Below, piece by piece: positions 13,754 through 56,419 of a DNA stretch of 64,000 nucleotides; positions within the stretch are counted from its first letter, which is position 1, and the number at the start of each line of letters is the position of its first letter. The notes beneath the pieces were generated by a model. That model worked only from the letters and a program-made list of their open reading frames with translations, had not been told where the DNA came from and did no database searches. The position numbers were made by a program, and so were the translations under genes. Source of the stretch: an uncultured Verrucomicrobiota bacterium (GTDB lineage Bacteria; Verrucomicrobiota; Kiritimatiellia; CAIQIC01; Lenti-01); contig CAZYGH010000010.1 of assembly GCA_964647595.1 (NCBI GenBank), forward strand, positions 20,362-84,361. Direction: 5' to 3'.

Positions 13754-13907
13754 GGGATGAAGAATGGAGCAAGGAGAGAATAGAGTCAAGATGGAGAAGA
13801 CCCCCCATAAACCGAATACCCCAACCCAAACGATGCCATCCGCATGGGGAAAGGAACGGGAGGCAGAGTCGGTTTCCGCGTGCGGAGCGCGTTCCACAGT
13901 GTGGAAA

Positions 13908-13939
13908 ACTTGAGCTATCACTTATAATTATAAGTGATA
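13908..13939. promoter_or_regulatory. perfect 32-bp palindrome GAGCTATCACTTATAA|TTATAAGTGATAGCTC in a divergent intergenic region
   Basis: Read directly from the sequence. Contains TATAAT-like hexamers on both strands. Lies between paralog 3 (minus) and the porin gene (plus). Confidence 0.5.
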
Positions 13940-13999
13940 GCTCGGAAGGCGCGGCTCTTCCCTTGACATGCCTCATTTTGAAAAGGTACGGTTTCCCTC

Positions 14000-17204: not shown

Positions 17205-19625
17205 ATGAAAACATGTGTCGTCTCTGCACGGTCCCGTGGCGCCATCCAACCCTTGGAAAAATGCGCGAAAAATGTTCCAACCCTTGGAAAAAATCCAAAA
17301 AAAAGTTCTAAGGGTTGGAACTTTTTGCTGGGCGTCCTGCTGGCGCTGATGCCGGCGGCGGAGGTCCGGGCGCAGTTTATTGGCTGGGCGTGCGGCGGAA
17401 TGGATGGGCAGGGCGGGCTGTTGGTGTGTACGACAAATGGCGTGGACTGGTTCCGGCAGGGCGTGGGCCAGCTCGGCACCGTTCCGCTGGGCGGCGTGGC
17501 CGCAGTGAATGGGCGGCATGTTTGGGTGACGGGAGATCTGAAGGACGGCTACGCCTCGATCTATTATTCGTCCAACGCGGGGCAAACTTGGATGCGGCAG
17601 GGAAACGCTTCTAGCCTGCCGGACCAGTCGTTGCGCAAGATTTGGGCAGTGGACCGGAACGTTCTCTGGGCGGTGGGGGTGAGGGGTACGGTCGTGGTCA
17701 CGGATAACGGGGGCGTGGACTGGCATGACGTGTCCGTGGCGGGCTACACGAACATGTTGCAGGGCGTGACGGCGGTGGATCCGCACAAGGCGTGGGTCAG
17801 CGGCCAAGTGAATCCGGATACGGGTCTGGCGGGGTTGTTTTACACGGAGAATGGCGGCCAGGACTGGCTGGCGCTTACCAACGGGGTCCCTGCCCAGACC
17901 GATCGCCTGCTCGGGCTTGCCGCGCTGGATGAAAATCGCGTGTTCGCGAGCGGGGGATACGAGACCATCCTGGCGACCACCAATGCCGGCGCGCAGTGGG
18001 AGACCCTTGCGGGGGGGGGATTTAAGGATGGCAACGAAATCTGCGTGCTCGACGAGAACCGCATTTGGGCGGCCAACGATGCCCATGTGAGCTGGACTAC
18101 CAATGGCGGCGTGAGCTGGAATTCGTTCAATACAAGCGAGTACACGATGGATGTTTCGACGCCGGACGGCACGAATGTCTGGGCGCTGTCCCACGGTCAT
18201 TGGGGCGGGATTATTTATTATTCGTCAGATGGCGGCGCGAGCTGGATCGAGCAGGCGAAGTCGAATGCGTGGATAAGGCTTGTCACGGTGGAGGTTCAAC
18301 GGATGCCTGTTTCGCGCACCCTGCACGTGGATGCGGCATCGGGAACCGCCGTTCCTCCTTACGATTCGTGGGCGACAGCGGCCTCGAACATCCAAGACGC
18401 GGTAGATGCGGCGTTGGATGGCGACATCGTGCTGGTGACCAACGGCGTGTATTCAGCAGGCGGCAGGACCACGTTGGAGGGGCTGACCAACCGTGTGGCG
18501 ATCGACAAGCCGGTGATGGTCACAAGTGTGAACGGGCCCGAGGTTACGATGATCGTGGGCCGTAGACCGAACAGCGATGCGGCGGTGCGCGGGGTTTATA
18601 TGGTGGAGGGCGCATCGCTGATTGGCTTTACCGTGACGAATGGAGCAACCTTGGCCCGGTTGGGGGAGGATGGTGCGGGAGGCGGGATCTTCGCGCAGGG
18701 TGGCGGTGCGATTATTTCGAATTGCATGGTGACCGGAAATACCGCTTGGAAGTGGGGCGGCGGTGTATATGGCGGAACGCTCTATCATAGTGTGTTGAGA
18801 GGGAACGAGGGAGACTTGGGCGGGGGTGCTTGTACCAGCACGCTCTACAACTGCTTGCTGACCGGCAACCGGGCTTGGGTCGACGGCGGCGGTGCGAGCG
18901 GCGGTGCGCTATTCAATTGCACCCTTGTCGGCAACTCGGCAAATTCGGTCGGAGGTGGAGCGTGGGACGCAGATCTGCACAATTGCATTGTGTATTACAA
19001 TGATGCGCCGAGTGGCGCTAATTGGTCCAACGGACTGTTACGGTTTTCCTGTACGACGCCCTTGCCCGAGGGCGCTGGAAATATGACCGCCGAACCGGGG
19101 TTTCTCGATCCGGGCAGTGGGGTTGGGACAAATCATGTCGCGGGCGACTACCGCCTGCAAAGCAATTCACCTTGTGTGAACGCGGGCTTCAACGATTCCT
19201 GGATGCACGAAGCGACCGATCTGGATGGCAATGCCCGCATCCAAAACGCCGTGGTGGACATTGGCGCGGTTGAGTCCGCGTGGTGGGGAATTTTTGCGGA
19301 CGTGGACGCGGACGGGTTCACGGATTGGACCGAGGTGGAGGTCACCGGCACGGACCCGACAAACGCGTCGTCGTTTCTGGGAATGATGGACGGGAGCGCT
19401 GAGGCGGAGGGTATGGTGATCCGCTGGCAAAGTGTCGAAGGCCGACTTTATCATGTGGACCGGTCACTGGATCTGATGGCCATCCCGGCCTTCCAATCGC
19501 TGACGAGCAACATTACCGGCCAGCCCGGAACAACCACCGTGACGGACACCACCGCCACCGCGAAGAGCCCCTATTTCTACCGGGTGGTGGTGGGGAGAGA
19601 GTCCCATGCGCCGGAACAACCATGA
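17205..19625 (+). CDS. secreted BNR-repeat (Ycf48-like) / right-handed beta-helix (choice-of-anchor-Q-like) protein with a C-terminal FN3-like domain
   Basis: Repeated xxDGGxxW BNR motifs, then repeated GGG...N beta-helix turns. C-terminal domain ends PYFYRVVV. Confidence 0.65.
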   Translation: MKTCVVSARSRGAIQPLEKCAKNVPTLGKNPKKSSKGWNFLLGVLLALMPAAEVRAQFIGWACGGMDGQGGLLVCTTNGVDWFRQGVGQLGTVPLGGVAAVNGRHVWVTGDLKDGYASIYYSSNAGQTWMRQGNASSLPDQSLRKIWAVDRNVLWAVGVRGTVVVTDNGGVDWHDVSVAGYTNMLQGVTAVDPHKAWVSGQVNPDTGLAGLFYTENGGQDWLALTNGVPAQTDRLLGLAALDENRVFASGGYETILATTNAGAQWETLAGGGFKDGNEICVLDENRIWAANDAHVSWTTNGGVSWNSFNTSEYTMDVSTPDGTNVWALSHGHWGGIIYYSSDGGASWIEQAKSNAWIRLVTVEVQRMPVSRTLHVDAASGTAVPPYDSWATAASNIQDAVDAALDGDIVLVTNGVYSAGGRTTLEGLTNRVAIDKPVMVTSVNGPEVTMIVGRRPNSDAAVRGVYMVEGASLIGFTVTNGATLARLGEDGAGGGIFAQGGGAIISNCMVTGNTAWKWGGGVYGGTLYHSVLRGNEGDLGGGACTSTLYNCLLTGNRAWVDGGGASGGALFNCTLVGNSANSVGGGAWDADLHNCIVYYNDAPSGANWSNGLLRFSCTTPLPEGAGNMTAEPGFLDPGSGVGTNHVAGDYRLQSNSPCVNAGFNDSWMHEATDLDGNARIQNAVVDIGAVESAWWGIFADVDADGFTDWTEVEVTGTDPTNASSFLGMMDGSAEAEGMVIRWQSVEGRLYHVDRSLDLMAIPAFQSLTSNITGQPGTTTVTDTTATAKSPYFYRVVVGRESHAPEQP

Positions 19626-19717: not shown

Positions 19718-19792
19718 CCTTGGTCATGGGTCATTGGATATTGGATATTGGATATTGAAATCTCCCCCCCGCCCCCCCCCATTTTTCGCGGA

Positions 19793-20074: not shown

Positions 20075-20671
20075 GGGATGCTCCTGGGGTTTGGGTTTAA
20101 AACCCTTACCATGCCCGGATGCCGCAAAAATTCAAGTATAGGTTTTGATGCCCTCTCCTCATCCGTTGCTTGCCACGCCTCAGCGTGGGCACTCGCGCCC
20201 CATTTCCACCCCCCCATTTTTCCACACAATGGAAAACTTTTTCGCGATTTTTCCACACAATGGAAAAAATGTTTCCACAGTATGGAAAACTTTAGGCCGG
20301 CCCCATTCCCGTGGCTACTCTGTAGGCCCGGGCGCTGACCGGGCGGCTGTTTGATCGGGACGCCCCCGTCCCGCATCTGCCCCTTCTGAATCCTGAATCA
20401 TCGCGCCCTCCGCCCCCCCTTCTCCGCTTGCCAACCCACCCCATTTCCTCCATCCTCATCATCCTGTGAACATTGCACCGCCCAAAGAACATCATTTCAT
20501 AGGACTACCCCTTTTATGTTCATATTAATGCTTACTTTTCCCTAAACACCTTTAACAATTTTAGACATGCCCCCGACATTCCGCCTGCATTGACATAACG
20601 CCTCCATTGGCCATACCGTCAGTATCGCAGTATATTGCATGCCCACAGCACATTCACCGGTCTACTCATAA

Positions 20672-21223
20672 ATGCCAAAGATTAAGACAAAACTATGCCA
20701 AGGGTATCTAAAACAGCAGATATTCAAGCATCCGGCAGCGGATCGTGACGGATACGTCCTACAGCACAAACTTGTCATTGAAGATCATATCAAACAAATT
20801 TTGCCACCTGGGTGCATTGTCCATCACATTGATCAAGACAGAAAAAACAATTCAATCGACAATCTACTCTTGATTCCAAATGACTCCCTTCATATGCGGC
20901 TGCATCTTCTGAAACTGAGCAAGCCGTCTGATTACGATAAGTTGTTCATGTTTTTTCTGGAGATACAGAATGCAGTCACAACTGGGAGCATCGATCTACA
21001 GAAATATTACCGCGAAGAGAAAATCAAGGCGCAGGCTCGATATCGGTCCGTTTCAGCAATTCCGGAGCTGAGCGAGATCGCATGCGAGATCCTTGAAGGT
21101 CGGAGAATCGGCGTGCAAAGGCTACGAGAGCAGCACGGCGACGATGTGCTTAAGCAGATGATTCGCTCTGCGTTGTTACAAATGCCAATCGATGCTCAAG
21201 AGTATGCGTGGGAACTAATTTGA
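20672..21223 (+). CDS. HNH endonuclease
   Basis: GYVLQHKLVIEDH...CIVHHIDQDRKNNSIDNLLLIPNDSLHMRLH is an HNH_3-type motif. Low-GC codon usage. Confidence 0.7.
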   Translation: MPKIKTKLCQGYLKQQIFKHPAADRDGYVLQHKLVIEDHIKQILPPGCIVHHIDQDRKNNSIDNLLLIPNDSLHMRLHLLKLSKPSDYDKLFMFFLEIQNAVTTGSIDLQKYYREEKIKAQARYRSVSAIPELSEIACEILEGRRIGVQRLREQHGDDVLKQMIRSALLQMPIDAQEYAWELI

Positions 21224-21277
21224 TCACTTGGCGAAATACAATCGCACGGAAGTATCACATTCATTGCAAAATATTTA

Positions 21278-21607
21278 TTGGATAACTACCGATCTTTTCG
21301 ATCCGCCAATACTATTATCCAAGGAATGATAGCTATCTATAAGCTGTGTAAGCTGTCGCCAGATCACATGCTAGGGTGGGATGAAAAGCTACTAATGTGC
21401 AAGAACATGCTTTCAAAAAGTAAGACTGCTATTCATTGGACCATATGTCTTGCCAATACTGTCCAGCTAGACGAGGTGACCAAGCTAAACCTGTACTCTA
21501 GCATTGATAAAAACAAACTGTACTGGCGCTCAAAGATTGAAATGAAGAGGCTCTCAAAGCCTCCTTCTGCCGAAGAATTGCAGGTTATTTATGAAGATTC
21601 TCTCTAG
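21278..21607 (+). CDS. hypothetical protein (AT-rich island)
   Basis: ORF only; no recognisable family. Confidence 0.3.
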   Translation: MDNYRSFRSANTIIQGMIAIYKLCKLSPDHMLGWDEKLLMCKNMLSKSKTAIHWTICLANTVQLDEVTKLNLYSSIDKNKLYWRSKIEMKRLSKPPSAEELQVIYEDSL

Positions 21608-22069
21608 AATATGGATATCGGTCCAATAATCAAAAAAAGTGGGCAGTCCTATGAAATGATGTTTTGCTGCGCGGATCCGTTTCATCCCTTCCTCTTTTCG
21701 CCCATCCAATATGCCGCCCGCAAACGCGTTCCCCCACCCCGCCTCCTACTTTCTTCCCCAAATCCCCGCGCACTCTATCCCCAAAGAATAGAACTATCTT
21801 TTGACATTTTGGACACGCCCTGACTTCCCTCCCCACCTTGGCGCCCTTTGCGAGTTGCCACTCCGTTCACGCGGCTCTGCCATAGAACTCGCGTTCGCCC
21901 ATCGCCTTTAGCTTGGGCTCTGCACTCGTCTATTTGCGAGAGATGGTTTTTTAAATCTCAACAGGGGGAAAAACCCAATAGGTCGGAGTCCCCCCCTCCA
22001 TTTCCTCCTCCCCCGTCTCTTCGGTCTCTCACTCCGCGCCCTCTTCTCCCTACTGCCCGTGCCGGCCCC

Positions 22070-22966
22070 TCATCCACTTGTCGCCATGGTTTGCACGAAG
22101 TCGAGCTCGAGTTCCTCAGCCGGGTTGCTCAATCGCACCCAAACCCTCACGCGCAGCACTCCGTCCAGAAGGTCGTCGGCGGTCATGGTGCTGCCCAGCC
22201 CAACCGACACCGCAAAGGCCTCGGCGGGCGTGGCACCCTCCAGCTGGCCTTCCTTCCACTCGTCCGTCAGAAAACTGTTGATCATGGAATGAACGGCATT
22301 CCAGGTGTTCGCGTCATTGGGCGCAAAGACATACGCCTGCATGGCTATCTGAACGGCCGCCTTGATCCGGCTGAGCGGATCGGTGTAGTCAATCGGCACC
22401 ACGGGAAAAGCCGTTTCGTGGGGCACGATCTCCACCTGCTCCGACTTCCCGACCGCGAGATGGTGCTGTTTCATCACGAGGTGCAGGCTCGCCCTGAACG
22501 TTTGGGGATCCGCCACAAACGGCACCTGCGCGGCCACGTCGTTCTCTGTGAAGAAGCGGTGGGTCGCTTCCGGAATCTCGATTCCGTTGCGCGGGTTGCG
22601 GTCGGCATCTAGGGTCTGCAGAAAGACGCATACGTTGGCCGTGACGTGGCGCGCCTGATGGTAGCCATCGATCGTCAGATCCAGCGGGGTGACCACGGGC
22701 CGCCCCATGGCCCGGCCCAGTTCCAAGTCGCCGACCGAAAACACCACCCACTCTCCCTCGCGATACTGAAAGGCCCCGCGCGCATCAGTCAAGCCGCGCA
22801 GCGTCGCGGAGCGGTAGGTCAATCCCGCCACCGCGCTGTCGAGGAACACCCCTTCCCGCACTGGACCGTCATCCGAATCGTCGCACCCCATCGCCAGGAC
22901 GCCCAGCGCCAAGACGAGACAGATAGATCGGAGACCCCCCCGCTTGCAGGAGGCCCCAGGCCTCAT
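22070..22966 (-). CDS. hypothetical lipoprotein
   Basis: Start at the internal Met (MRPGASCKRGGLRSICLVLALGVLAMGC), giving a lipobox LAMGC. No recognisable family. Confidence 0.4.
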   Translation of the reverse strand: MRPGASCKRGGLRSICLVLALGVLAMGCDDSDDGPVREGVFLDSAVAGLTYRSATLRGLTDARGAFQYREGEWVVFSVGDLELGRAMGRPVVTPLDLTIDGYHQARHVTANVCVFLQTLDADRNPRNGIEIPEATHRFFTENDVAAQVPFVADPQTFRASLHLVMKQHHLAVGKSEQVEIVPHETAFPVVPIDYTDPLSRIKAAVQIAMQAYVFAPNDANTWNAVHSMINSFLTDEWKEGQLEGATPAEAFAVSVGLGSTMTADDLLDGVLRVRVWVRLSNPAEELELDFVQTMATSG

Positions 22967-23067
22967 GACGGTGAATTTCCCATCCCCTGTTTGTCCGGCC
23001 TTCGCGGTTTTGTTGTTCATTTGGCTTGCTCCAACTGTGCCCATGCTCGACGACTTGGAATCAAATC

Positions 23068-24051
23068 TCAAGCGCCAAAGGGGCAGACCCGCAACATTAT
23101 CATGCGAACCGGCTCGGGCATGTTGTTCATCACCTCAAACAACGCCTTGCGGTTTCCACCTCCGCCCAGCTTGCCAACTCCGCCAGCAACCCATACTCTC
23201 CACTGCATCCAACGGAAATACGCCCCCGCATGATCACTCGATTTATGAATTTGGAAGAGGCCCATCGCGCGGAAGCGGGAGAAGGCAGGAATGGCATCGT
23301 GGGGGCCTGGGGCGGCTTCGGGATGATACTGGAGCGAAAAGGCAGGAACCTTCTTCGCCTCCAACCCTTCCACGGTTCGGTCGTTCAAACTGACGTGCGT
23401 GATTTCGGCCTCGGCCGGATCTAGACTATCCGCATCCACCCGATAATTGTGATTCTGCGATGTGATTTCCACCGTCGCCGCCCGCACATCCATCACGGGG
23501 TGATTGCATCCGTGGTGACCGAACTTCAATCGGCACGTTTTCCCGCCCAGCGCCAGCCCCAGCAACTGGTGGCCAAGACAGATGCCCATGATCGGCACCT
23601 TGCCCAGCAATCCCCGAATCGTGGCGATGGCATAGTGCAACGCCGCCGGATCCGCCGGGCCGTTGGACAGCATCACACCCGCAGGAACGGTGAAAGGACG
23701 AACTGAACCGCCACCGCTGATGGTCACCCGGAAGCCGTTGTGATTCGTATTCAGGTAACTAGCGTTGGGCGTGCCTGAAATGACCACCGTGCCGGTGACA
23801 TTGAGCGTGCTCGCAAGCGCAATGGTCGTTTCCTTGAAGCCAAAGGATATGGAGCGCGTGCCCGTGCAGGGCTGGGCCAGCGCCCAGCGCAGCGTGCCCG
23901 TCCCGCTGTCTAGATGGTTGGTGACCGTGAAGGTCTGGTCGGCGCGGGCGGCCATGAGGCTCAGGGCGAGCGCCAGAGCCACTTGCATGACCAGTCGGTT
24001 CCACGTGTAGCGTGTTGGTTTCATCGTTGTTCCATCCAGTTTGTCATCCAT
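23068..24051 (-). pseudogene. carA: chimeric ORF: N-terminal secreted beta-helix-like fragment fused to the C-terminal ~130 aa of carbamoyl-phosphate synthase small subunit (CarA glutaminase domain)
   Basis: The C-terminal half (KVPIMGICLGHQLLGLALGGKTCRLKFGHHGCNHPV...HPEAAPGPHD) is colinear with the E. coli CarA C-terminus, but the CarA N-domain is absent and replaced by a signal-peptide-bearing fragment. Confidence 0.5.
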
Positions 24052-24562
24052 ATTTCACATTCAGGGCCGCCGCCGTGCGGGGGCTCAGGTAGGGCGCGCC
24101 AGTCAACAGGGCTTGGATGCCATGAATTAAATGACCGGCGGCTTCGCGTTTGGTGACATATCCATTGGCGCCGGCAGTTAACGCACTGCGTATCATGTGC
24201 GCGCCTTCGTGCATCGAGCAGACCAGGACGATCAGGCCGCGTTCCCGTAGCGGCCCGATCAGGTCGATGCCGCTTTCGTCACCCAGTTTCAGATCGAGCA
24301 GCACCACCCCGCCGGAGGAAAGGTTCGCGTGCGCCAAGGCTTCGCGGCCACCGCCAGCTTCGCCGGCGATTGCGCACCCCATGGACCGCAACAGATTCTT
24401 CAACCCGGCGCGGACTCTTGGCTCATCGTCCACGATAAACACGGACGGCTTGGCAAGCGCCTGCAGCGGGGCGGCACGATCCATCCCGATTCGATCCATC
24501 GAATTCATGCGGGCAAGAATAGGCAGACAGACGGAGGAGAGAGAGGGGGATTTTCCTCTCAT
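24044..24562 (-). CDS. response regulator receiver domain protein (no output domain)
   Basis: CheY-like (VFIVDDEPRVRAGL..., D..K...GANGYV) with no HTH. Confidence 0.7.
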   Translation of the reverse strand: MRGKSPSLSSVCLPILARMNSMDRIGMDRAAPLQALAKPSVFIVDDEPRVRAGLKNLLRSMGCAIAGEAGGGREALAHANLSSGGVVLLDLKLGDESGIDLIGPLRERGLIVLVCSMHEGAHMIRSALTAGANGYVTKREAAGHLIHGIQALLTGAPYLSPRTAAALNVKYG

Positions 24563-26480: not shown

Positions 26481-27281
26481 TTAGTCTCGGTCGAGGCCTT
26501 GTCGGAGGTCGCGGATTTTGGCGGCCATGCGGGCGGGGAGGTCGGGGGCGGCGGGGGCGGTGCCGATGACGTTGACGAGGGTGGAGCCGACAATGACGCC
26601 ATCGGCCATGGGGGCGAGTTTGGCGGCATCGTCGCCGTTGCGGATGCCGAAGCCGAGGCAGACGGGGAGGGGGCTGACAGCTTTGACTTCGGCGGCGTGT
26701 TTGGCGATGGCGGAATAATCTAGGCCACCTTCGCCGGTGGTTCCGGTTTTTGTGATGAGATACAGGAAGCCGCCGGTTTCGTTGGCGATTTTTTGAAGGC
26801 GGTCGGGGCGCGTGGTGGGGGCGGCGAGCAAAATGATTTGGATGTCGGTGCCCTTCAATGCGGCGCGGAGGGGGGCGGCCTCTTCGGGCGGGAGATCGAC
26901 GACGAGGAGGCCGTCGACGCCCGCTTCATGCGCGGCCTTCGCAAGCCGTTCGAGGCCGTATTTGAAAAGGGGATTGTAGTAGCCGAAGAGCATAATGGGG
27001 ATGTCGGATTCGGCGCGGAGGCGGGCGGCGAGCCCGAGGGTTTTTGTGAGGGTCATGCCGGAGGCGAGGGCGCGTTGCGAGGCGAGCTGGATGGCGGGGC
27101 CGTCGGCAGTGGGGTCGGAGAAGGGGACGCCGAGTTCGAGGATGTCGATCCCGGCGGCACAGGCGGCGCGCAGGATTTCAAAGCTGGTCTCGAGGTTCGG
27201 GTCGCCCGCCGTGAGATAGCCGACGAGGGCTTTGCGATGGGTGGAGGAGAGTTTTTGGAACGTGGTCGTAATTCTATTCAT
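26481..27281 (-). CDS. trpA: tryptophan synthase alpha chain
   Basis: TIM-barrel TrpA motifs (LVGYLTAGDP, GVPFSDPTADGP). Confidence 0.9.
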   Translation of the reverse strand: MNRITTTFQKLSSTHRKALVGYLTAGDPNLETSFEILRAACAAGIDILELGVPFSDPTADGPAIQLASQRALASGMTLTKTLGLAARLRAESDIPIMLFGYYNPLFKYGLERLAKAAHEAGVDGLLVVDLPPEEAAPLRAALKGTDIQIILLAAPTTRPDRLQKIANETGGFLYLITKTGTTGEGGLDYSAIAKHAAEVKAVSPLPVCLGFGIRNGDDAAKLAPMADGVIVGSTLVNVIGTAPAAPDLPARMAAKIRDLRQGLDRD

Positions 27282-27295
27282 GTTTCAAACCCAAA

Positions 27296-27470
27296 GAAGA
27301 ATGTTCACCACAGAGGGCACAGAGATTCACAGAGGAAAAATTCTCTGTGGAACTCTGTGTTCTCTGTGGTTCAAACGGCTGTTTGAAAGTTTTCCACAGT
27401 ATGGAAAAAATTTTCGCGATTTTTCCACACAATGGAAAAAATGTTTCCACACTGTGGAAAACTTTTTGGG
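27296..27470. repeat. composite intergenic repeat: CACAGAG inverted-repeat module + ~75-bp module of three TTTTCCACAnnnTGGAAAA palindromes
   Basis: Near-identical copy at 39205..39375 in the opposite orientation, plus partial copies at 20215..20290, 40003..40098, 48785..48815, 56335..56380 and 13885..13905. Confidence 0.7.
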
Positions 27471-27472
27471 GG

Positions 27473-28681
<1,209 letters not shown>

Positions 28682-28806
28682 TTTATGGAATTATGAAATG
28701 TTGGAAAGATTGGGAATATGGAGAGACTGTCGTGGATCGGTGGGGGAGGGTGTTAGAGATAGATGATTTCTGTTTGATTTAGGCTGTTCAAATTCGGTTG
28801 GGCTAT

Positions 28807-29238
28807 TCATCGGTAGTGTGGATCTTTGCAATTATTGCATTCACTGAATACAGCAGGCACTAATTCTTTACCCCAAATTTTATTACCAGCACGTTTAGGG
28901 TTTTCAATATACGACCGATTACGGTCGCTAAAGTAAAGGTTTATGCAACTCTTGCAATGGTCTACTGATTCGTCATCCCTGTTGTGAATAGTTGCTCTAG
29001 CCATACCGCTAAAAACAGATTCAATCACATTCAGGAATTGAGCACAGGCGGGAAGCGGAGCCGTTTTTACGATTGGGGTTTGATGCTTACTCCTATCTTC
29101 ATCGCTGTTAACGAGTTCAACTTCGACTTCGCACATACGGTTTAGGTGGTGGATACCAGACCATGCGGATGGCGGTGACGAAACCGCGAGAGGGCGAATT
29201 TCGGATGGGGAGGTCATGTCGGTAGCCGGGTTTTCCAC
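28807..29238 (-). CDS. hypothetical protein (lower-GC insert)
   Basis: ORF in an AT-richer segment between trpB and the toxin-antitoxin pair. Cys/His-rich C-terminus; no confident family. Confidence 0.3.
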   Translation of the reverse strand: MENPATDMTSPSEIRPLAVSSPPSAWSGIHHLNRMCEVEVELVNSDEDRSKHQTPIVKTAPLPACAQFLNVIESVFSGMARATIHNRDDESVDHCKSCINLYFSDRNRSYIENPKRAGNKIWGKELVPAVFSECNNCKDPHYR

Positions 29239-29522
29239 TTTTCAGGGTCTTGGGAGCAATGGAAAACTGAATAGACGACGTAGCGATTGAGGGCCGTTTC
29301 AAACTCGAAAAAAATAGCGAAGGGAAAGTGGCGGACAAGTAATCTGCGGTAGGACTCAATGGCAATTGGATAGGTGAGAGGGGTACGCTGAATCGCAAGA
29401 AGAGCCGTCTCAACGCATCGCAGGAATTCCATGCCAAGTCCCATTTTTTGGTGTTCATACCACAGGAAGGCGTCCGCAACGTCTTTCTGGGCCTCAGGAA
29501 GGAGTAGAGGGGGCTCTGTCAT
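29214..29522 (-). CDS. type II toxin-antitoxin system RelE/ParE-family toxin
   Basis: ParE-like core (...AIESYRRLLVRHFPFAIFFEFETALNRYVVYSVFHCSQDP). Start at the internal Met, with an ATGA overlap with the antitoxin stop. Confidence 0.7.
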   Translation of the reverse strand: MTEPPLLLPEAQKDVADAFLWYEHQKMGLGMEFLRCVETALLAIQRTPLTYPIAIESYRRLLVRHFPFAIFFEFETALNRYVVYSVFHCSQDPEKWKTRLPT

Positions 29523-29737
29523 CCCGGTTGGAGGATGGACCTCTTGACTTGAGCCCAAGTTTGGCAGGAATCCGGATTTTGTAGATAGCTTGCCTTGCGT
29601 CGGGCCAGTTCTTCCGTCTGCCACTGAGGGACGGGCAGGTTGGCATTACTTCGTGCGATGCTGTCCCACAGGTCCTCGACGAGTTGCATGCGTTCCGGCA
29701 CGGACAACGATTCAAGTTCTTGTAATGCTATAGTCAT
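29519..29737 (-). CDS. putative addiction-module antitoxin component
   Basis: 72 aa (MTIALQELESLSVPERMQLVEDLWDSIA...), typical of the small antitoxin partnered with ParE/RelE. Translationally coupled to the toxin. Confidence 0.65.
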   Translation of the reverse strand: MTIALQELESLSVPERMQLVEDLWDSIARSNANLPVPQWQTEELARRKASYLQNPDSCQTWAQVKRSILQPG

Positions 29738-29781
29738 GATTCAAAACTTTACCTCTTTTTAGGGTCGGGGACAATTTGTTT

Positions 29782-30880: not shown

Positions 30881-33800
30881 TCAGGGCAGGGTGACTTTCA
30901 CCCGGTAGATGCGGGAGCCGGATCCATTCTCGAGCGGCAGGGACATGGTGGTATTGGTGCCGCGCCGGTTGAGAACGGACGGAACATCGGTCCAAACTTG
31001 CGGGGTGGCGGTAGGGTTGTCGATATATTGCAACGTGTAGCAGCGGCGCGTGGAGGCGGGGAAGAGAATGGAATCGGCGGCGATGCCTTCGACTGTAAAT
31101 CGGGTGTCGGGGTTCAGGGTGTCGTTGGGATTGCGGTCGAGAATAAATTCTTCCCAGTTCTGGAGATCGTCGCCATCCGGATTTTCATCGGAACCGGAGA
31201 CAATGGAGCGGAAGAAGCTGGTTTCCCACGTGTCTTCCAGACCGTCGCTGTCGTCGTCATCGCCGGCGATTTCTTCGGCGACGATGCGAAGATCGTCGAT
31301 GAAGAAGAAGTCGCTGGTGTTGTCGGATGCGGCCCCTTCATCGAAGCGGATGCGCACCTTGACTTGTTCGGTGCCGGAAGGGATTTCCAGCGTGGCGGGA
31401 TTGGCGCTGACCGACATGGAGGACGTGGCATCGAAGGCGAGATTTCCGTTTCGGAATCCGCCGACGAGCCGGACGGAATTGTCTTCCTTCCATGTGAGGC
31501 CGTTGTCGAAGGACAGGTCGAGCCACAAATTGTCGCCCGAATCGGGACCTTGTGCGCTGAAGGCGATGAGAATTTGTGCGTTGTCGTATTGGGCGAGGTC
31601 GATGTTGGCAAATTCGACGGCGGGGTCCACGTTGAGCCCGGCCGAACCGGCCAGCACGAGGGAATGGAACCACGTACGGGCACGCTCGGAGGTCAGGGCG
31701 GTGCTAGCGCCCAGCTCGTAGCTCCACGTGTCGTCGGAAGTTTCTTCAAATCCTTGCGAAGCCAGCACGGTGGCATCGGTGCTCTCGGAGTCTGCGCGGC
31801 GAGTAATTGTCACAGAGGCGGTGGCGGTGGCACCTGCGGCGTTGGTGGCGGAAACGGAGAGAATGTTTTCGCCGATGAAGAGCGGGATGGAAGGAAGGGT
31901 CCATTCGGCGGCAGCAGGAATGGAGAAAGAGCCGCCCTGATCGTTCGATCCGTTCAGCAAACCCGTTGCAAAGGCGTTGCAGGAACCGAAGAGAGCGATG
32001 GTGGTGACCGAGTTCGGGACGGTGAACGCATCTGCCGCGGGATCAGTGATCTCGATTTGCGGATCGTCCTCGGCCAGGGGTTGCATTTCGGCCAGAACGC
32101 GTGCACCGCCGCCGATGGTGAGGCGGACGTCGTCGATGAAATAGTGATCGGACAGATTGGATGCGCCAGCCTTTTCGTCGAAGCGGACGCGCACTTGGAT
32201 TTGAGCGGCGCTGGCGGGGATGTTGACGATCCACGGGTTGGAAGCGACGGTCATGGGATTGGCGGCGACGGTGGCACCGAAGGCGATGTTGGCGTTGCCG
32301 TAGCCGTCGACAAGTTTGACGGAGCCGGTGGCGTTCCACGTGGCCCCGTTGTCGGTTGAGAGGTCGAGATAGAGGTCGTCGTCGGAATCGGGTCCGAATG
32401 CGGAGAAGGCGATGGAAAGTTGTACGCCGCTTTGTCCGGCGAGATTAACGTTGTCAAAGGTGACGAACGGATCGGCCGAGCCATTGGCAGAACCAGACAA
32501 TTTCAGGGATTTCGCGCCGGACAGGACGCGGTTGGTGGTGACGACGGCGATGGTGCCTGATCCGGGTGTGGAGGTGTAGGCCCACGTGTCGTTGGTGGTG
32601 CCTTCAAATCCTTGGAATTTTACGGAGCCGGAGCCGTAAGAAGCGGGGATCACGGTAATGGAAATGGTTTCATAGGCGGTGCCATCTTGATCACCGGCCC
32701 AGAAGGTGACGGGATAGGAACCGGCGGGCGTGGCGGAGAGCCACGAGAAAGTGCCGCTGGTTTTATTTGAGCTGGGAGTGAAGGTCGCGCCGGTCGGCAA
32801 GCCCACGGCCCACAGGTTGGTGATGGCATCGCCATCGGTGGCGGTGGCGGTGATAGCGAACGACAAGGTGTTGGAGACTTGCACCGACTTGTTGCCGATG
32901 GCGGCGAGAATCGGAGGCGAGCCCAGCAGGCCGCCGCTGGAAGTCGCGGTGAGCTTGATGCTGTCGATGTAGTAGTGATCGGAGGTGTTGGCGGAACCGG
33001 ATTTTTCGTCGTAGCGCACGCGGACCTTGAGTTGGGCCGTTCCGGCGGGAATGGCGACGCTCCATGGATTGGCCCCCACGGTGGTGGGTTTGGCTGCATT
33101 GGTGGCACCAAAGAGGATCTTGGCGTTGTAGTAGCCGGTCACGAGTCGGTTGGTTTGAGGCCACGTGGTGCCATTGTCGAAGGAGAGGTCGAGCCAGAGA
33201 TCGTCGCCCCCGTCGGGACCGTCGGCACTGAAGCCAATGGAGAGAATGACGTTGCTACAACCGGCGAGGCTGACAGTGTCGAACACGACGGTGGGGTCGG
33301 AGGATCCCGCGCTGGAGCCGGACATCTTTAGGGATTTTGTTCCGGCAGCACTGCGGTCGCTACTGATAGCGAGAGTTCCCAAACCGGGTGTGGCGGCATA
33401 AGTCCACGTGTCGGAAACGGCACCTTCGAAGTCCTGCAATTTCAATACGACTGCGCCGCCACCGGAGGCGGGTGGATTCGTAACGGTGATGGAAATGGTT
33501 TCGGAATCGACACCATCATGGTCAGCGGCCCAGAACGTAATAGAGTGTGAACCGGCTGGCTTGGCAGAGGGCCATGAAAACGTTCCGCTGAGGTGGTTGG
33601 AGGTGGGCGTGAATGTGGCACCGGAGGGAAGGCCTGTGGCCCACAGATTGGTGACGGCATCGCCATCGGTGGCGGCGACGGTCACCGCAAACGATAATGC
33701 GTTGGAAATTTGCACGGACGAATGGCCGATGGGGGCGAGCACCGGTGGCGTTTGCGGTGTCACACCGCCGGTATTGCCGGTCAATTGGATGTCGTCGATG

Positions 33801-36481
33801 AAATAGTGGTCGGAGGTGTTTGCCGATGCGATTTTCTCGTCATAGCGCACACGCACTTTGAGCTGTGCGGTTCCGGCGGGGATGGAAACCGTCCACGGAT
33901 TGACGGCCACGGTGGTGGGCTTGGCGGCGTAGGTTGCACCGAAGGCGACGTTGGCGTTGCCATAGCCATCCACGAGCTTGACGGAGCCTGCGCCGGTCCA
34001 CGTGGTGCCGTTGTCGTAGGAGAGATCCAGATACAGGTCGTCATCGCTATCGGGGCCGCTGGCGGCAAAAGCGACGGAGAGTTGGACGTCGGAATAAGAA
34101 GAAATATTCACGTTGGCGAATTCCACTCTTGGATCAGAATTGAGACCGGCTGAGCCGGATATCTTGAGGGACTTGGTTCCCGACATGAAGCGTTCCGTGC
34201 GGGTGGCGATGGTGCCGGAGCCCGGCGTAAAAACAGGAGCCCAGTTGTCGTCGGCCGAGGCTTCGAATCCTTGCGAGCGGATGACGGCGGGACCGGCGAC
34301 GGGCGCGGAATTGGTGACACGGATGACCATGGAAATCGACGAGACGCCATCGTTGTCAGCGGCCGAGAAGGTGACGGAATACGTTCCGGTCGGCGAAGGG
34401 TTTGCCCAAGAGAACGTGCCGTTGGTGTTGCCGGTGCCCGGTGTGAACGTGGCACCGGAGGGCAGGCCCGTTGCCCAGAAGTTGGTGATGGAGTCGCCAT
34501 CTGTTTTTTGTGCCACGACGGTGAATTGCACCGCCAATCCGACGGCGGTGCTCTGGTTGCTGATGGCGGGGAAGAAGGGGGGAGACTGGGGAGATTGCGT
34601 GGCGGGGAAGGGTAGAACGGCGGGATCGCCCTGCAAATTCAGGCCAAACTGAATCCAGCGTTCGGAACCGTTGGCCGCGCACTGGCTGATCATGTCGGCT
34701 TTGTGCATGGCGAAGGCCGTGCCGGCGGTGCGGTTGGTGGTTTCGTAGAGGCGCTTGTAGAATTTGTAGCCATAGACGGTGGAAGGGCCGCCATCGGAGG
34801 TGTTGCTGGCGGGAGAAGCATCCGGCTCGCCCCAGCCATAGCGGCTGCATCCAACGTAGACCAACGCACCGCCGGTTGGATTGCGCAAGAAAGCTTCGCT
34901 CAGGCAGGGGTCGGTCGAACCATCGAAGTGGCCTGTCAGACATGCGTCGGTGTAGACGAAGGGGGTTTTGTTTGTGAGCAAGGTTGCATCGCTACTATAA
35001 AACGCGCCGCTTTCAAGACCCCAGGCGGTGACATCGCCGTGACCCGAGAAGAAGAGATGCCACCAGCCTTCGTTAAAACGCTTGCGGACGTTGGTGGCGT
35101 TTTCTAGATAATCGCCGCCGGTGGTGGTGTCCCACGAGGTGAGCGTGTCGCAGAAGATGCCGATGGTGGTGGCTTGCCAGTAGGGGCGGATGCCGTCGCG
35201 ATAGAGGCGGCGGTCCCACATTTCGGAATCGCTGATGCTGGGATGGGTGGTGTCGCGGAAAGCGCGGTGACCGTCGGCGGTGACGTCATCCGAGGGGCGG
35301 CTGGTGCCGGTATAGGTGTCCCATGCGACCATACCGCCGAGGATGATTTTTTTGGAGAGGTTCGTGGGCGGGGCCGTTTCGAAGGAAATGAGTTTATTGA
35401 TGTAGGCGGTGGCCTGCGCGGCCGTGCGTACGGGAATGCGGCCCACCACTACTTCCCACGCCATGTCGGGATTGTCGGTGATTTCGCCATAGACGGTGTT
35501 GCTGTTGGCGTTCCAGTCGCGGTCGAGTCCGGAGTAATACAGATCGGTGGGCATGGCGGATTCCACTTCGGTATCCACCGAGACTTTGGTTCCGCGGGGC
35601 GGCACCAGCGTGTCATCGCCGCCCAATACCACATAGAGGGTGCCGTGGTTTTGGTAGTAGTCCTTGATGCAGGCGCGAATTTTGGCTTGGGCATCAGTTC
35701 CGGTGTAGGAATTTGTGATGGATTCCACCGTCAGCATTTGGCAGGTGAAGCGCGAGGCGCGGTGTTGAATCAAGGCATTGAAGGCATTGGTGCAGGACTG
35801 GCGCGTGATGAGGAGATATTGTGCCGCTGTGTCGGCCAGCAGACCTCGGGAAGCCGTTGGGGCAAAAGCCTCCGAAGAGTCGGCATTGACGACAAGATCC
35901 TGAACCCATGTGGCCGCTTCTGTGCGTTGTGCGGCGGGTGCGCTGAGGCGGGCGCGGGGTTCGGAATAGGTCACGGTCAGGTTCAACTGGGTGGAGAGAA
36001 AGAGTTGCTTGGAAGTGGCGATGTAGCGGATGGGATGGAGTCGCACGGAAACGAGGGAATAGCCGCTCATCGTGTGTTCACCCGCCGTCGCAGCCAACGT
36101 GGCCGGAATTTTATCGGTTTGCGCATAAGCGGAAGCCAAGGCGGGAACAAATGCATGGCGTGCGCCACTGCGTTTTTGTGGAGGCTGTGCGGGCAGGACG
36201 GTGATGTCGTCGCGCAGCAACACTTCGTTGCCTTCCGCGCGGACGTCCGTCACGGTGGCCCCCGACGGAATCAGCACGTTGACAAATGTTGCGGGCAGCC
36301 AAGGCGTTCCGGGGGGATCTCCCGGAAGAACGGCACCGGCCAGATGCACTTTTTCATAGGCGCCTTGTATGGCGTAGGTGACCTCGGATGGATCGAAAGA
36401 AAAGGTGAGGGACACTTCTCCTGCTCGGGCCAAAGTTGAAAGACACATCGTCGCGATGAATGCACCGAACCATTTTTTCAT
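30881..36481 (-). CDS. giant secreted protein: N-terminal gingipain-like C25 cysteine peptidase domain + 5 tandem ~170-aa jelly-roll-like repeats alternating with Ig-like (He_PIG-type) domains + C-terminal D-rich/FN3-like region
   Basis: Signal peptide, then C25 catalytic His and Cys motifs (FSGHGDVTAWG, YTDACLTGHFDG). Repeats QGFE..D.W....GSG....SG.KSLK.SG....DP.V.F..V.L...S.V.LS..FSA.GPDS.DDL.LDLS.DNG.TW...VRVRYDEK...NTSDHY.IDD recur five times. Confidence 0.8.
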   Translation of the reverse strand: MKKWFGAFIATMCLSTLARAGEVSLTFSFDPSEVTYAIQGAYEKVHLAGAVLPGDPPGTPWLPATFVNVLIPSGATVTDVRAEGNEVLLRDDITVLPAQPPQKRSGARHAFVPALASAYAQTDKIPATLAATAGEHTMSGYSLVSVRLHPIRYIATSKQLFLSTQLNLTVTYSEPRARLSAPAAQRTEAATWVQDLVVNADSSEAFAPTASRGLLADTAAQYLLITRQSCTNAFNALIQHRASRFTCQMLTVESITNSYTGTDAQAKIRACIKDYYQNHGTLYVVLGGDDTLVPPRGTKVSVDTEVESAMPTDLYYSGLDRDWNANSNTVYGEITDNPDMAWEVVVGRIPVRTAAQATAYINKLISFETAPPTNLSKKIILGGMVAWDTYTGTSRPSDDVTADGHRAFRDTTHPSISDSEMWDRRLYRDGIRPYWQATTIGIFCDTLTSWDTTTGGDYLENATNVRKRFNEGWWHLFFSGHGDVTAWGLESGAFYSSDATLLTNKTPFVYTDACLTGHFDGSTDPCLSEAFLRNPTGGALVYVGCSRYGWGEPDASPASNTSDGGPSTVYGYKFYKRLYETTNRTAGTAFAMHKADMISQCAANGSERWIQFGLNLQGDPAVLPFPATQSPQSPPFFPAISNQSTAVGLAVQFTVVAQKTDGDSITNFWATGLPSGATFTPGTGNTNGTFSWANPSPTGTYSVTFSAADNDGVSSISMVIRVTNSAPVAGPAVIRSQGFEASADDNWAPVFTPGSGTIATRTERFMSGTKSLKISGSAGLNSDPRVEFANVNISSYSDVQLSVAFAASGPDSDDDLYLDLSYDNGTTWTGAGSVKLVDGYGNANVAFGATYAAKPTTVAVNPWTVSIPAGTAQLKVRVRYDEKIASANTSDHYFIDDIQLTGNTGGVTPQTPPVLAPIGHSSVQISNALSFAVTVAATDGDAVTNLWATGLPSGATFTPTSNHLSGTFSWPSAKPAGSHSITFWAADHDGVDSETISITVTNPPASGGGAVVLKLQDFEGAVSDTWTYAATPGLGTLAISSDRSAAGTKSLKMSGSSAGSSDPTVVFDTVSLAGCSNVILSIGFSADGPDGGDDLWLDLSFDNGTTWPQTNRLVTGYYNAKILFGATNAAKPTTVGANPWSVAIPAGTAQLKVRVRYDEKSGSANTSDHYYIDSIKLTATSSGGLLGSPPILAAIGNKSVQVSNTLSFAITATATDGDAITNLWAVGLPTGATFTPSSNKTSGTFSWLSATPAGSYPVTFWAGDQDGTAYETISITVIPASYGSGSVKFQGFEGTTNDTWAYTSTPGSGTIAVVTTNRVLSGAKSLKLSGSANGSADPFVTFDNVNLAGQSGVQLSIAFSAFGPDSDDDLYLDLSTDNGATWNATGSVKLVDGYGNANIAFGATVAANPMTVASNPWIVNIPASAAQIQVRVRFDEKAGASNLSDHYFIDDVRLTIGGGARVLAEMQPLAEDDPQIEITDPAADAFTVPNSVTTIALFGSCNAFATGLLNGSNDQGGSFSIPAAAEWTLPSIPLFIGENILSVSATNAAGATATASVTITRRADSESTDATVLASQGFEETSDDTWSYELGASTALTSERARTWFHSLVLAGSAGLNVDPAVEFANIDLAQYDNAQILIAFSAQGPDSGDNLWLDLSFDNGLTWKEDNSVRLVGGFRNGNLAFDATSSMSVSANPATLEIPSGTEQVKVRIRFDEGAASDNTSDFFFIDDLRIVAEEIAGDDDDSDGLEDTWETSFFRSIVSGSDENPDGDDLQNWEEFILDRNPNDTLNPDTRFTVEGIAADSILFPASTRRCYTLQYIDNPTATPQVWTDVPSVLNRRGTNTTMSLPLENGSGSRIYRVKVTLP

Positions 36482-39204: not shown

Positions 39205-39375
39205 ATTCACCACAGAGGGCACAGAGATTCACAGAGTAAAAATCTCGGTGGTCCTCTGTGTTCTCTGGGGTGAAAACGGCTGTTCAACAGTTTTCCACAG
39301 TGTGGAAACATTTCTTCCATTGTGTGGAAAAATCGCAAAAAAGTTTTCCATACTGTGGAAAAATATTAAATTATA
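39205..39375. repeat. composite intergenic repeat (second full copy, inverted orientation)
   Basis: See 27296..27470. Lies between trpG and trpD. Confidence 0.7.
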
Positions 39376-39986: not shown

Positions 39987-40002
39987 GGGATTCTCCGGGA
40001 AG

Positions 40003-40098
40003 GTAGAGTTTCTCTCACAGAGAGGCACAGAGATTCACGGAGAAAACGGAATCGCTTCTCTGTGGGACTCTGTGAACCTCTGTGAGAGGAAGGGCTGT
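40003..40098. repeat. partial copy of the CACAGAG inverted-repeat module
   Basis: ctcacagagaggcacagagattcac...ctctgtgggactctgtgaacctctgtgagagg, between trpE and trpG. Confidence 0.6.
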
Positions 40099-43972: not shown

Positions 43973-44254
43973 GCTCCCAAAAAGTTTTCCACCGTGTGGA
44001 GGCTCTTGCAAAACGACGTTTCGCAAGAGCAGTAGTCAGGAGCGAGTAGCCAGTCGTCAGCATGAATAGCCACCGAACTTTCTTTACGTAGCTCATGGCC
44101 AAATTCTGACTACTGAATCCTGACTCCTGACTACTCTCTTGCAACAACTCCGTCAGGAGTTTTGCAAGAGGTTCCATTGTGTGGGTGGTGCATTGACTTT
44201 GCGGGGGTGAAAGGGTAGGTTTTTGCGCCTTAGGAAGGATTCCATATAAATTTC

Positions 44255-48697: not shown

Positions 48698-48891
48698 ACC
48701 TCGGATGCACACGGATGGGAACAGGAGTCGGGATTACGGGAAAGAGAGACTACGAATGTTGCGAATGGGGGAGGGAAGAATTTTTGCCACAGAGGGCGCA
48801 GAGCTATAGAGAGAGGTAGAATGGGGGTGAATAGGGGGGAGGCCGGGGTTGGGATCCCCGGCTATCATGGAGAAGGATGGGGTGGTGGGGG

Positions 48892-56328: not shown

Positions 56329-56419
56329 GTGAGGAAGTTTTCCACACTGTGGAAAACTTTTTTCCACAGTGTGGAAAACCGGGGAAAAAGGCATGAGCCG
56401 CCGCAGAGCGCGGAGGGGG

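Follow-up and report, generated by a model that had tools for sequence, protein, structure and literature searches.

The trp operon of an uncultured Verrucomicrobiota bacterium (GenBank assembly GCA_964647595.1) is interrupted by short intergenic repeats. The DNA analysed here, referred to as the window, is a stretch of 64,000 nucleotides of contig CAZYGH010000010.1 (positions 20,362 to 84,361 of the forward strand), and the repeat under study lies at 27,296 to 27,470 of the window, between trpB and trpA. The 191-nt trpB-trpA spacer is occupied by an array of three 19-bp palindromes together with a long CACAGAG/CTCTGTG hairpin, and the trpG-trpD and trpE-trpG spacers (210 and 111 nt) are likewise filled with repeats. 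The gene assignments of an initial annotation, made by reading the window alone, were upheld by Pfam, and all of the repeat sites that it had listed are present in the sequence. The best reading of the palindromes, as judged from comparative sequence data, is that they form a lineage-specific family resembling repetitive extragenic palindromes (REPs) and bacterial interspersed mosaic elements (BIMEs), in which each unit is a predicted double-stranded DNA site for a cooperatively binding dimeric protein.

The repeats are real and occur far above chance. A pattern search of the window for TTTTCCACANNNTGGAAAA with up to two mismatches returned 12 sites and 23 strand-matches, against 0.06 expected; TGTGGAAAA is present in 13 copies (0.57 expected) and CACAGAG in 19 (4.2 expected). 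Twelve canonical units and several variants were located (Table 1), at a density of roughly one array per 10 kb, and each array is intergenic when judged against the Pfam-verified genes. These repeats had been described as one composite family. Instead, at least two independent families are involved, and they are adjacent at two sites only, the trpB-trpA and trpG-trpD spacers, whereas 40009-40091 is a hairpin alone and 20218-20289 and 56338-56378 are arrays alone. Of the two copies of about 175 bp that were said to lie in opposite orientations, the three-palindrome module is indeed inverted (27382-27466 versus 39286-39370, 91% complementary), but the CACAGAG hairpin keeps its side: in both copies it adjoins the start of the downstream gene (27304-27341 and 39206-39243 form a direct repeat, 97% identical). 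Two further entries had to be amended. The copy listed at 13885..13905 does contain a unit, but a single one, beside a different palindrome of 32 nt; the degenerate copy at 43981..44180 does contain decayed units, but it is a region of about 200 bp with internal inverted repeats and a unit at each end. The variant array at 17242-17322 was absent from the earlier listing.

Table 1. Genes and repeats of the window, followed by the state of corresponding features in related loci (designated by L numbers). Positions are those of the window.
Feature	Position	Strand	Details
trpA	26481-27281	minus	Pfam Trp_syntA
trpB	27473-28681	minus	Pfam PALP
trpD	38166-39182	minus	Pfam
trpG	39393-39987	minus	Pfam; start read as MILMIDNYD
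trpE	40099-41676	minus	Pfam
Single unit and AT-centred palindrome	13890..13943		unit 13890-13908 (2 arm mismatches); 32-nt perfect palindrome GAGCTATCACTTATAATTATAAGTGATAGCTC at 13912-13943
Variant array	17242..17322		three TCCA-ACCCT-TGGA-type units, period 31, A-tract/GCGCG spacers; upstream of gene 17325-19625; Tandem Repeats Finder period 31, 2.1 copies
Three-unit array without hairpin	20218..20289		units at 20218, 20249, 20271; spacing 31 then 22; downstream of gene 17325-19625 and a parvulin-like open reading frame; 87% complementary to 39278-39364
CACAGAG hairpin, trpB-trpA spacer	27307..27370		three direct CACAGAG heptamers 9-10 nt apart, then three CTCTGTG; end ~25 nt upstream of the trpA start codon
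Three-unit array, trpB-trpA spacer	27390..27461		units 27390-27408, 27421-27439, 27443-27461; start spacing 31 then 22
Second CACAGAG hairpin, trpG-trpD spacer	39208..39268		~25 nt upstream of the trpD start; left arm 97% identical to 27304-27341, right arm partly decayed
Three-unit array, trpG-trpD spacer	39291..39362		units 39291-39309, 39313-39331, 39344-39362; spacing 22 then 31; inverted relative to 27390-27461
CACAGAG hairpin without palindrome array	40009..40091		trpE-trpG spacer (39988-40098)
Decayed-unit region, ~200 bp	43985..44188		decayed units 43985-44003 and 44170-44188 at the two ends; interior with hairpins and inverted heptamer-repeat runs (44031-44063 / 44103-44135); DNA fold −45.5 kcal/mol, z −4.7
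Remnant, one CACAGAG hairpin arm	48783..48810		66% match to the hairpin direct repeat
Two perfect units 22 bp apart	56338..56378		units at 56338, 56360; between convergent 3' ends of open reading frame 54994-56328 (plus) and nrdR 56420-56911 (minus)
trpB-trpA spacer, window			3 units (22, 31 on the sense strand) and CACAGAG hairpin
trpB-trpA spacer, L109			3 units, opposite orientation, and CACAGAG hairpin
trpB-trpA spacer, L108			2 units
trpB-trpA spacer, L112			4 units
trpB-trpA spacer, L111			remnant only
Loci with CTATCACTTATAATTATAAGTGATAG palindrome			L012, L019, L021, L028, L043, L061, L082, L104, L107 (two sites)

The palindrome is not restricted to the window. A scan of 185,579 species-representative genomes for two units exactly 22 bp apart matched at least 107 stretches in other genomes, and the unit was defined from a logo of 403 units taken with 6 nt of flank on each side. 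The core motif had earlier been given as TTTTCCACA-N3-TGGAAAA; the conserved unit is instead TTTTCCA-N5-TGGAAAA, a 19-bp palindrome that can be written in full as TTTTCCA-YRSYR-TGGAAAA (T4-C-C-A, Y-R-S-Y-R, T-G-G-A4). Information content amounts to 1.4-2.0 bits per position in the arms, 0.6-1.1 in the centre and 0.15-0.5 in the flanks and spacers. The centre varies mainly by transitions, within its pyrimidine-purine pattern, and its Watson-Crick pairing lies below the expectation from column frequencies (0.55 versus 0.62 for positions 8-12, and 0.44 versus 0.50 for positions 9-11). The double variant T8+A12 is under-represented (9 of 400 units), so that compensatory covariation is absent from the centre. 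Units with 0, 1 and 2 arm mismatches number 301, 75 and 29, compared with 0, 0 and 14 in 646 kb of unrelated control DNA; consequently, the family has no tail of decayed copies.

The units are also regularly spaced. Arrays contain from one to nine units, solitary units are nearly absent, and the starts of neighbouring units lie 22, 30-32 or 41-43 bp apart, which corresponds to two, three or four helical turns with linkers of 3 nt, 11-13 nt and about 22 nt, respectively. Besides the distance of 22 bp, which was selected by the search itself, start-to-start distances of 30-32 bp were counted 110 times, 41-43 bp nine times, 50-53 bp five times and 61-64 bp seven times, and there is no case of 23-29, 34-40, 44-49 or 54-60 bp. 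No hidden unit was found between starts 41-42 bp apart. Loci obtained independently, through their TrpA proteins, have the same spacings of 22, 30 and 31 bp. The periodicity of the spacing is that of the DNA helix.

The half-sites bear on one alternative, in which the arrays would be grouped DnaA boxes serving to titrate the replication initiator or to regulate it. Intergenic clusters of DnaA boxes are known in other bacteria, and the commonest half-site of the present family, TTTTCCACA, fits the box consensus TTWTNCACA; the same sequence equals the cyanobacterial box and is reportedly used as a DnaA box in Cyanothece. About 57% of the half-sites are perfect boxes. However, the constraint is reversed: position 5, which is free for DnaA, is 100% C in these units, whereas positions 8-9, which are strict for DnaA, are C in 75% and A in 64%. 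About 14% of the units lack a perfect box, and at least one box occurs in 83% of them, against about 81% expected if the halves were independent. DnaA binds as a monomer, for which a palindrome is unnecessary. Furthermore, GC skew is positive across the window and gives no replication origin there. DnaA boxes are therefore not supported and must be considered a very remote explanation. A tBLASTn search with E. coli DnaA (an approximate query sequence) found no dnaA locus in the window or in the loci examined. The centromere-like site parS is not supported either. It is a 16-bp palindrome (TGTTNCACGTGAAACA), present in a few copies near the origin, whose half TGTTCCAC differs by one base from the half-site TTTTCCAC. 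The halves of the present unit are 3 bp further apart, its many copies are spread over many contigs and dispersed along the chromosome instead of gathering at the origin, and GC skew gives no origin in the window.

RNA folding, proposed in the initial annotation as a check, gave strong structures, with −35 to −38 kcal/mol for the arrays and −40 to −49 kcal/mol for the hairpins (z −7 to −10). Such values, together with two units flagged as terminator-like and the many arrays located 10-60 nt after stop codons, might suggest that the repeats act at the RNA level only, as weak bidirectional terminators, RNase barriers or processing sites that tune the neighbouring cistrons in the manner of E. coli REPs. 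In the metagenome-assembled genome (MAG) CAYNHA, moreover, a composite of an array and another palindrome stands mostly at gene 3' ends. But the arms are invariant rather than covarying, pairing in the centre is below expectation, and a spacing in turns of DNA is meaningless for RNA. Neither strand nor orientation is favoured (20 three-unit modules run with transcription and 14 against it), and arrays also occupy divergent promoter gaps. Terminator-like matches in the region number 23, which is not above the 18 ± 3.7 of shuffled sequences, and a strong terminator in the trpB-trpA spacer would deprive trpA of transcription. Assessed as intrinsic terminators, the units have A/U-rich stems with three G-C pairs, convergent gaps are not enriched, and arrays stand inside operons. 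An Rfam scan of the window had a single match above the gathering threshold, a tRNA at 57077-57147, and no RNA family at the repeats. A purely RNA-level role of the arrays is thus not supported and is improbable, although such a reading is plausible for the CACAGAG hairpin.

The genomic context of the arrays is unspecific. Arrays of at least two units lie in tandem, convergent and divergent gaps in 56, 17 and 15 cases, against 162, 52 and 65 background gaps of at least 60 nt. They are as near to stop codons as to start codons, with no preference for promoters or gene ends. With an unmasked open reading frame (ORF) model, 34 arrays appeared to lie inside genes; this is an artefact, as every frame through a unit is free of stop codons. 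Genes next to arrays are unrelated housekeeping genes, including pyrB, panD with an amidohydrolase, pheT, a peptidase C25, a PIF1-like helicase, glycosyltransferases and an EF-Ts-family gene.

These observations bear on the suggestion that the repeats are operators of a specific transcription factor for the adjacent genes, such as a trp or aromatic amino-acid regulator. The palindromes do consist of half-sites, the three repeat-filled spacers of the trp operon are kept in relatives, and locus L023 has an array upstream of trpE. Nevertheless, the number and placement of the arrays and their unrelated neighbours make a gene-specific operator unlikely. The distribution over gap types matches what is available, divergent and upstream positions are not enriched, one array of the window (56338) lies at convergent 3' ends, and none lies upstream of trpE in the window. 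The trp sites shared by relatives represent one inherited event rather than independent ones. As a switch for the tryptophan genes the arrays are not supported, and the probability of this explanation is very low.

The initial annotation had proposed looking for transposase-like genes flanked by copies. In the array-bearing loci, which total about 780 kb, no transposase, nuclease, regulator or other recurrent gene was found next to an array or between two of them. All-against-all clustering of 586 predicted proteins near arrays returned only syntenic orthologues, and genes between two arrays share no common family. A Pfam search with 68 small flanking proteins (best 25 of 80) gave housekeeping families only and no transposase, nuclease or GIY-YIG domain; tBLASTn searches of the loci with the HNH, NrdR and small ORFs of the window produced no link to arrays.

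Among the matches listed, all come from 22 species-level MAGs labelled Verrucomicrobiota, Verrucomicrobia, Opitutia, Kiritimatiellia or Lentisphaerae. These MAGs derive from digester or wastewater samples. Proteins shared between array-bearing MAGs are mostly 75-92% identical, with about 55% for the deepest pair, and because of these values the mixed labels probably cover a single lineage at the level of a family or order. A metagenome search with TrpA retrieved 80 loci, in which units are confined to those with TrpA identity of at least 80% and there always include the trpB-trpA spacer. In the 75 loci with TrpA identity of at most 65% (646 kb), no unit with one arm mismatch or fewer was found, and a scan of viral contigs with the pair pattern gave 0 matches. 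With many copies in the window, these 22 related MAGs among the matches listed and its presence within operons, which it breaks up, the family is what the initial annotation took it to be in general terms, a small dispersed intergenic repeat of the REP kind.

Arrays persist at orthologous sites. Loci L037, L108 and L109 are syntenic with the trp region of the window; L037 and L109 have the order trpE-G-D-C-F-aroG-trpB, followed by trpA in L109, L037 ending in trpB and L108 beginning in trpF. The trpB-trpA array is retained in four of five species whose TrpA proteins are 80-86% identical (Table 1). The trpG-trpD array is found in the window, in L109 and, inverted, in L037; the CACAGAG hairpin of this spacer is present in L109 and absent from L037. 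The hairpin between trpE and trpG (40009..40091) is kept at the same site in L037. Other pairs of MAGs have arrays at the same site with different numbers of units (3 versus 5; 4 versus 5; 6, 6 and 2), and in the deepest comparison, L005 with five units and L067 with nine, the flanking proteins are about 55% identical. In such same-site pairs the flanks and spacers are unalignable and the arms are identical. The arms and the spacing are therefore under constraint at most copies, and the arrays also gain, lose and flip units. Flipping is to be expected, because any two palindromic units are mutual inverted repeats.

Several further features of the trp region were recorded. An ORF of 1866 amino acids with three to four internal tandem repeats of about 831 nt (30881-36481, minus strand) lies between trpF and the gene of 3-deoxy-D-arabino-heptulosonate 7-phosphate (DAHP) synthase. 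It is missing at that position in L037, L108 and L109, where trpF directly adjoins the DAHP synthase gene, and it is consequently an insertion into the operon. A second one is probably the segment of about 1.1 kb (28690-29780) that separates trpB from the DAHP synthase gene; it holds two ORFs with low GC content at third codon positions (GC3; 28807-29238 and 29214-29624) with one weak match to a ParE toxin, and the equivalent gap measures about 145 nt in L108 and about 370 nt in L109. Between the array and the trpA start, where the window and L109 have the CACAGAG hairpin, L108 (~3130-3230), L112 (~1760-1865) and L111 (~800-910) have a conserved segment of about 100 nt with two hairpins (cccgccaccttgtgtggcggg, cccatggcacaaggccatggg). 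Finally, the motif CCTAGTTGTCAAGCGGCG(G/C)TC(A/C)CAAAAA, which reads TTGACA on the reverse strand, occurs at 41667-41695 and 43955-43985 of the window and at 1085-1120 of L023, upstream of trpE in both and also, in the window, beside the decayed unit that begins at 43985. A promoter −35 region and a further small repeat are both possible identities for it. A sigma-70 promoter scan of the trp region was not above shuffled controls.

Among the closest known systems are the REPs and BIMEs of Enterobacteria and Pseudomonas, including the REPINs, which are mobilised by REP-associated tyrosine transposases (RAYTs). BIMEs of E. coli bind gyrase and IHF and stabilise mRNA. Shared features are short, high-copy, strictly intergenic palindromes that are tolerated within operons and frequently follow close on stop codons, a mosaic arrangement using a small number of fixed linker lengths (an analogy of layout, as the unit sequences are unrelated) and persistence at the same site across species. 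As with REPs, which are stem-loops of 20-40 nt, the present unit is an extragenic palindrome of high copy number; it measures 19 nt. It differs in being a near-perfect palindrome with invariant arms and a variable 5-bp centre, REPs being imperfect stem-loops, as well as in its whole-turn spacing and in the lack of a RAYT gene found nearby. Its arms do not change even between genomes with only about 55% identity among orthologues, a depth of conservation that REP sequences do not usually reach. Most described REP families are marked by a GTAG or CGTC tetranucleotide at the end of the stem-loop (PMC3733652). In the 403 units no such tag was seen and the flanks are merely A/T-rich, so that membership in the described REP super-families fails.

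A second comparison concerns the dRS3 repeat of Neisseria, ATTCCC-N8-GGGAAT, a palindrome of about 20 bp that is the target of the GIY-YIG single-stranded DNA (ssDNA) nuclease SsnA (PMC11893778). It has in common with the present family conserved arms around a free centre, intergenic copies (hundreds in Neisseria) and mosaics with other segments, known there as NIMEs; its arm sequences are unrelated to TTTTCCA. In the NTS/SRM-Ssn systems, NTS has an oriented CGTC-containing flank, and ssnA is typically flanked by repeats (PMC11893778). Neither was seen here: the 403 units have no oriented flank, and GIY-YIG is not among the flanking-protein families listed (best 25 of 80), and on this basis the family is not assigned to this group. 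The initial annotation had also likened the repeat to a miniature inverted-repeat transposable element (MITE). This is not borne out, as outer inverted repeats exist only because each unit is itself palindromic, the full modules at 20218, 27390 and 39291 have no flanking direct repeat or target-site duplication, no transposase lies by the arrays in the ~780 kb of loci, no transposase-bearing parent was found and the tail of decayed copies is missing.

Other resemblances are more partial. The BOX elements of Streptococcus pneumoniae are likewise modular intergenic composites with a variable-number middle module and stable structures. Their modules, however, measure 45-60 nt and do not resemble palindromic protein sites, and they are not known to be helically phased. 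Operator arrays of ArgR, NrdR and Lrp share with the present arrays palindromes separated by 3 bp (a 22-bp repeat) or by three turns (31 bp). ARG boxes are 18-bp palindromes 3 bp apart, NrdR boxes are about 31-32 bp apart and Lrp sites about three turns apart, an architecture that implies a dimer of dimers or a larger oligomer on one face of the helix. These regulators, however, use a few sites in specific promoters, whereas the present arrays are numerous, occur in every type of gap and are unlike them in sequence. Resemblances to NrdR, ArgR, TyrR, CodY and Lrp sites each fail on sequence, spacing or number of sites.

The reading that best accommodates these data is that of a genome-wide set of protein-binding arrays of the REP/BIME kind that is maintained by selection, and its probability may be put at roughly 0.55. 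A dimeric DNA-binding protein is predicted because the 7-bp arms are invariant, the centre does not covary, the spacing is in whole turns, solitary units are few, and the arrays are indifferent to strand and gap type. The two monomers would contact one TTTTCCA arm apiece; the pyrimidine-purine centre, which is flexible, would be recognised through its shape or ignored. Units placed two, three or four turns apart would bring the dimers onto one face of the helix and allow them to bind cooperatively as an oligomer. Gain, loss and inversion of units would probably proceed by recombination between mutually inverted units. The arrays would thus serve as a genome-wide platform for an architectural protein or a domesticated enzyme rather than as gene-specific operators, and in function they would be counterparts of REP/BIME or dRS3/NIME repeats. 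The earlier idea of half-sites for a dimeric regulator survives in this form: arms, non-covarying centre and whole-turn spacing agree with it, but the sites are genome-wide and not tied to particular genes.

Several points weigh against the protein-binding reading. The scan demanded a pair exactly 22 bp apart, which makes copy counts and taxonomic range lower bounds; gene calls in the loci came from a crude ORF/codon model, with units masked for the analysis of context; no DNA-binding or transposase gene recurs near the arrays; and each unit could also fold, in RNA or DNA, into a hairpin followed by a T-run, so that an RNA-level contribution is possible. The 72-nt three-unit module is polar. 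In 67 modules with spacing 31 then 22, units 1 and 2 have the centre CAC-N-A and unit 3 has CA-S-TG, and the 12-nt spacer is loosely conserved as TTTTTCGCGAT. The copies of the window share 94-97% identity with modules that other species carry at unrelated sites, compared with about 75-88% for coding DNA. In CAYNHA, the same insertion of about 90 nt (TGGGCTTCGGGCCACGTTTGG...) interrupts the 12-nt spacer in L011 (~1045-1140) and L019 (~3190-3265), which points to copying of the already interrupted module or to another small element with a preference for this spacer. From the polarity, the high identity and the shared insertion, it follows that whole modules are duplicated or dispersed at some rate.

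These same observations also fit a selfish element. According to this alternative, the repeats are non-autonomous elements of the REPIN or MITE type, in which the module or a pair of units is copied by a hairpin-recognising ssDNA enzyme encoded elsewhere, for instance a RAYT-like HUH transposase or an Ssn-like GIY-YIG nuclease, and the conservation of the arms reflects recognition by the enzyme and ongoing turnover. Besides the consensus and polarity of the whole module, the near-identical modules across species and the two CAYNHA loci with the same interrupted module, the duplication of composite copies within the window and the loss at the orthologous site in L111 are in line with it, and the REP-RAYT and NTS/SRM-Ssn systems provide precedents (PMC3733652, PMC11893778). 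Against it stand the absence of a GTAG/CGTC tag and of target-site duplications at the three full modules (20218, 27390, 39291), the lack of a candidate enzyme gene by the arrays in the ~780 kb covered, the near absence of decayed copies and the 12-nt spacers, which mostly differ from one another inside one genome. Helical phasing and absent compensatory changes would also be unexpected if an enzyme recognised ssDNA hairpins. A selfish origin is on balance rather unlikely.

In an extension of the protein-binding reading, which is tentative and less likely than not, the arrays may be landing pads of a lineage-specific, hitherto undescribed nucleoid-organising protein or of a domesticated recombinase, a dimer on TTTTCCA-N5-TGGAAAA that would polymerise along the phased arrays at some hundreds of intergenic sites. 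By analogy, its logic would be that of Noc-NBS, MatP-matS or ParB-parS, but genome-wide and selected site by site, and the hairpins would mark transcript boundaries.

The CACAGAG/CTCTGTG hairpin is a separate REP-type family. It occurs without an array at 40009 of the window, in L060 and in L037, and it is found in 3 of 107 array-bearing loci among the matches listed. In the trp operon it always stands a short distance upstream of the next start codon. For 27307..27370 the sense strand has a predicted RNA fold of −40.3 kcal/mol (z −8.6) and its complement one of −49 kcal/mol; the values are −27 kcal/mol for 39208..39268 and −43.6 kcal/mol (z −7.4) for 40009..40091. Transcribed within the operon, so strong a stem (−40 to −49 kcal/mol) just before the next cistron would probably act on RNA, and its position makes a role as a transcript barrier or processing site plausible.

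Arrays also have other hairpins as companions. The AT-centred palindrome CTATCACTTATAATTATAAGTGATAG (window 13912-13943) has a core that recurs with 100% identity in MAG CAYNHA, at 11 sites distributed over 10 loci; 10 of the 11 sites lie 3-9 nt from an array, and most are near gene 3' ends. Variants with compensating changes occur in other MAGs. Different perfect palindromes (GTCTCGGTTATAATTATAACCGAGAC, ACTCTCACAGTTAATTAACTGTGAGAGT) also take the same position beside arrays in other MAGs. A perfect hairpin of at least 9 bp within 90 nt was found in 24 of 218 array flanks (one of them an artefact of an N-run), so that the pairing of array and hairpin is frequent and not obligatory. The palindrome was also considered as a promoter, with TATAAT on both strands; this was discarded, since most copies lie at gene 3' ends.

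A further class of intergenic repeat consists of tandem heptanucleotides, which occur in the window at 19733-19757, 39395-39427 and 44102-44132 with a different 7-mer at each site, and also in L003, L014, L020, L031, L038, L066, L068, L089, L106 and L113. The 7-mers, among them ATTGGAT, ATTCTGA, CTGACTC, CATTCTT, CTCCGAC, TTCAGGG and CCAATAT, recall the short tandemly repeated (STRR) heptamers of cyanobacteria. The trpG ORF runs into such a repeat, which forms its last ~10 residues, and the trpB-trpA spacer of L113 consists wholly of them. Period-7 repeats are enriched about 12-fold per bp beside arrays, which probably reflects a shared intergenic location, and they are regarded as a separate repeat class.

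Three other loci of the window were noted. About 200 nt from the array 20218-20289, a segment of about 1.2 kb with low GC3 (20480-21670) is enclosed by 39-nt inverted repeats (20488-20526 / 21625-21663, 79%) and contains an HNH_3 endonuclease ORF (20672-21223) and a 109-amino-acid ORF without a family match; it resembles a small mobile element, and no relatives were found in the loci examined. The interval 20001-24000 is the sole stretch of the window with negative GC skew and contains ORF 22070-23071, with a weak match to a phage tail sheath C-terminal domain; the region 22070-24562 (minus strand) may be a remnant of a prophage or contractile injection system. The nrdR gene (56420-56911, minus strand), with Zn-ribbon and ATP-cone, ends 41 nt from the array 56338-56378, and no nrdR homologue was found in other array-bearing loci.

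Proteobacteria, Neisseria, streptococci and cyanobacteria are known to carry short palindromic repeats dispersed in their genomes. The literature search returned no description of the present motif, nor of such repeats in this uncultured Verrucomicrobiota/Kiritimatiellia-type lineage. The practical consequences concern gene prediction and assembly: lacking stop codons in all frames, the units give rise to spurious N-terminal extensions of ORFs, and the arrays probably fragment metagenome assemblies of the lineage. The repeats also fill the spacers of the trp operon, which is normally compact. Invariant arms, a free centre, strictly helical spacing and persistence at the same site at about 55% protein identity argue for a conserved protein partner, for which the consensus site can be used directly as bait. 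If this partner proves to be an architectural protein or a new domesticated enzyme, the arrays would represent a third repeat-protein system beside REP-RAYT and NTS-Ssn.

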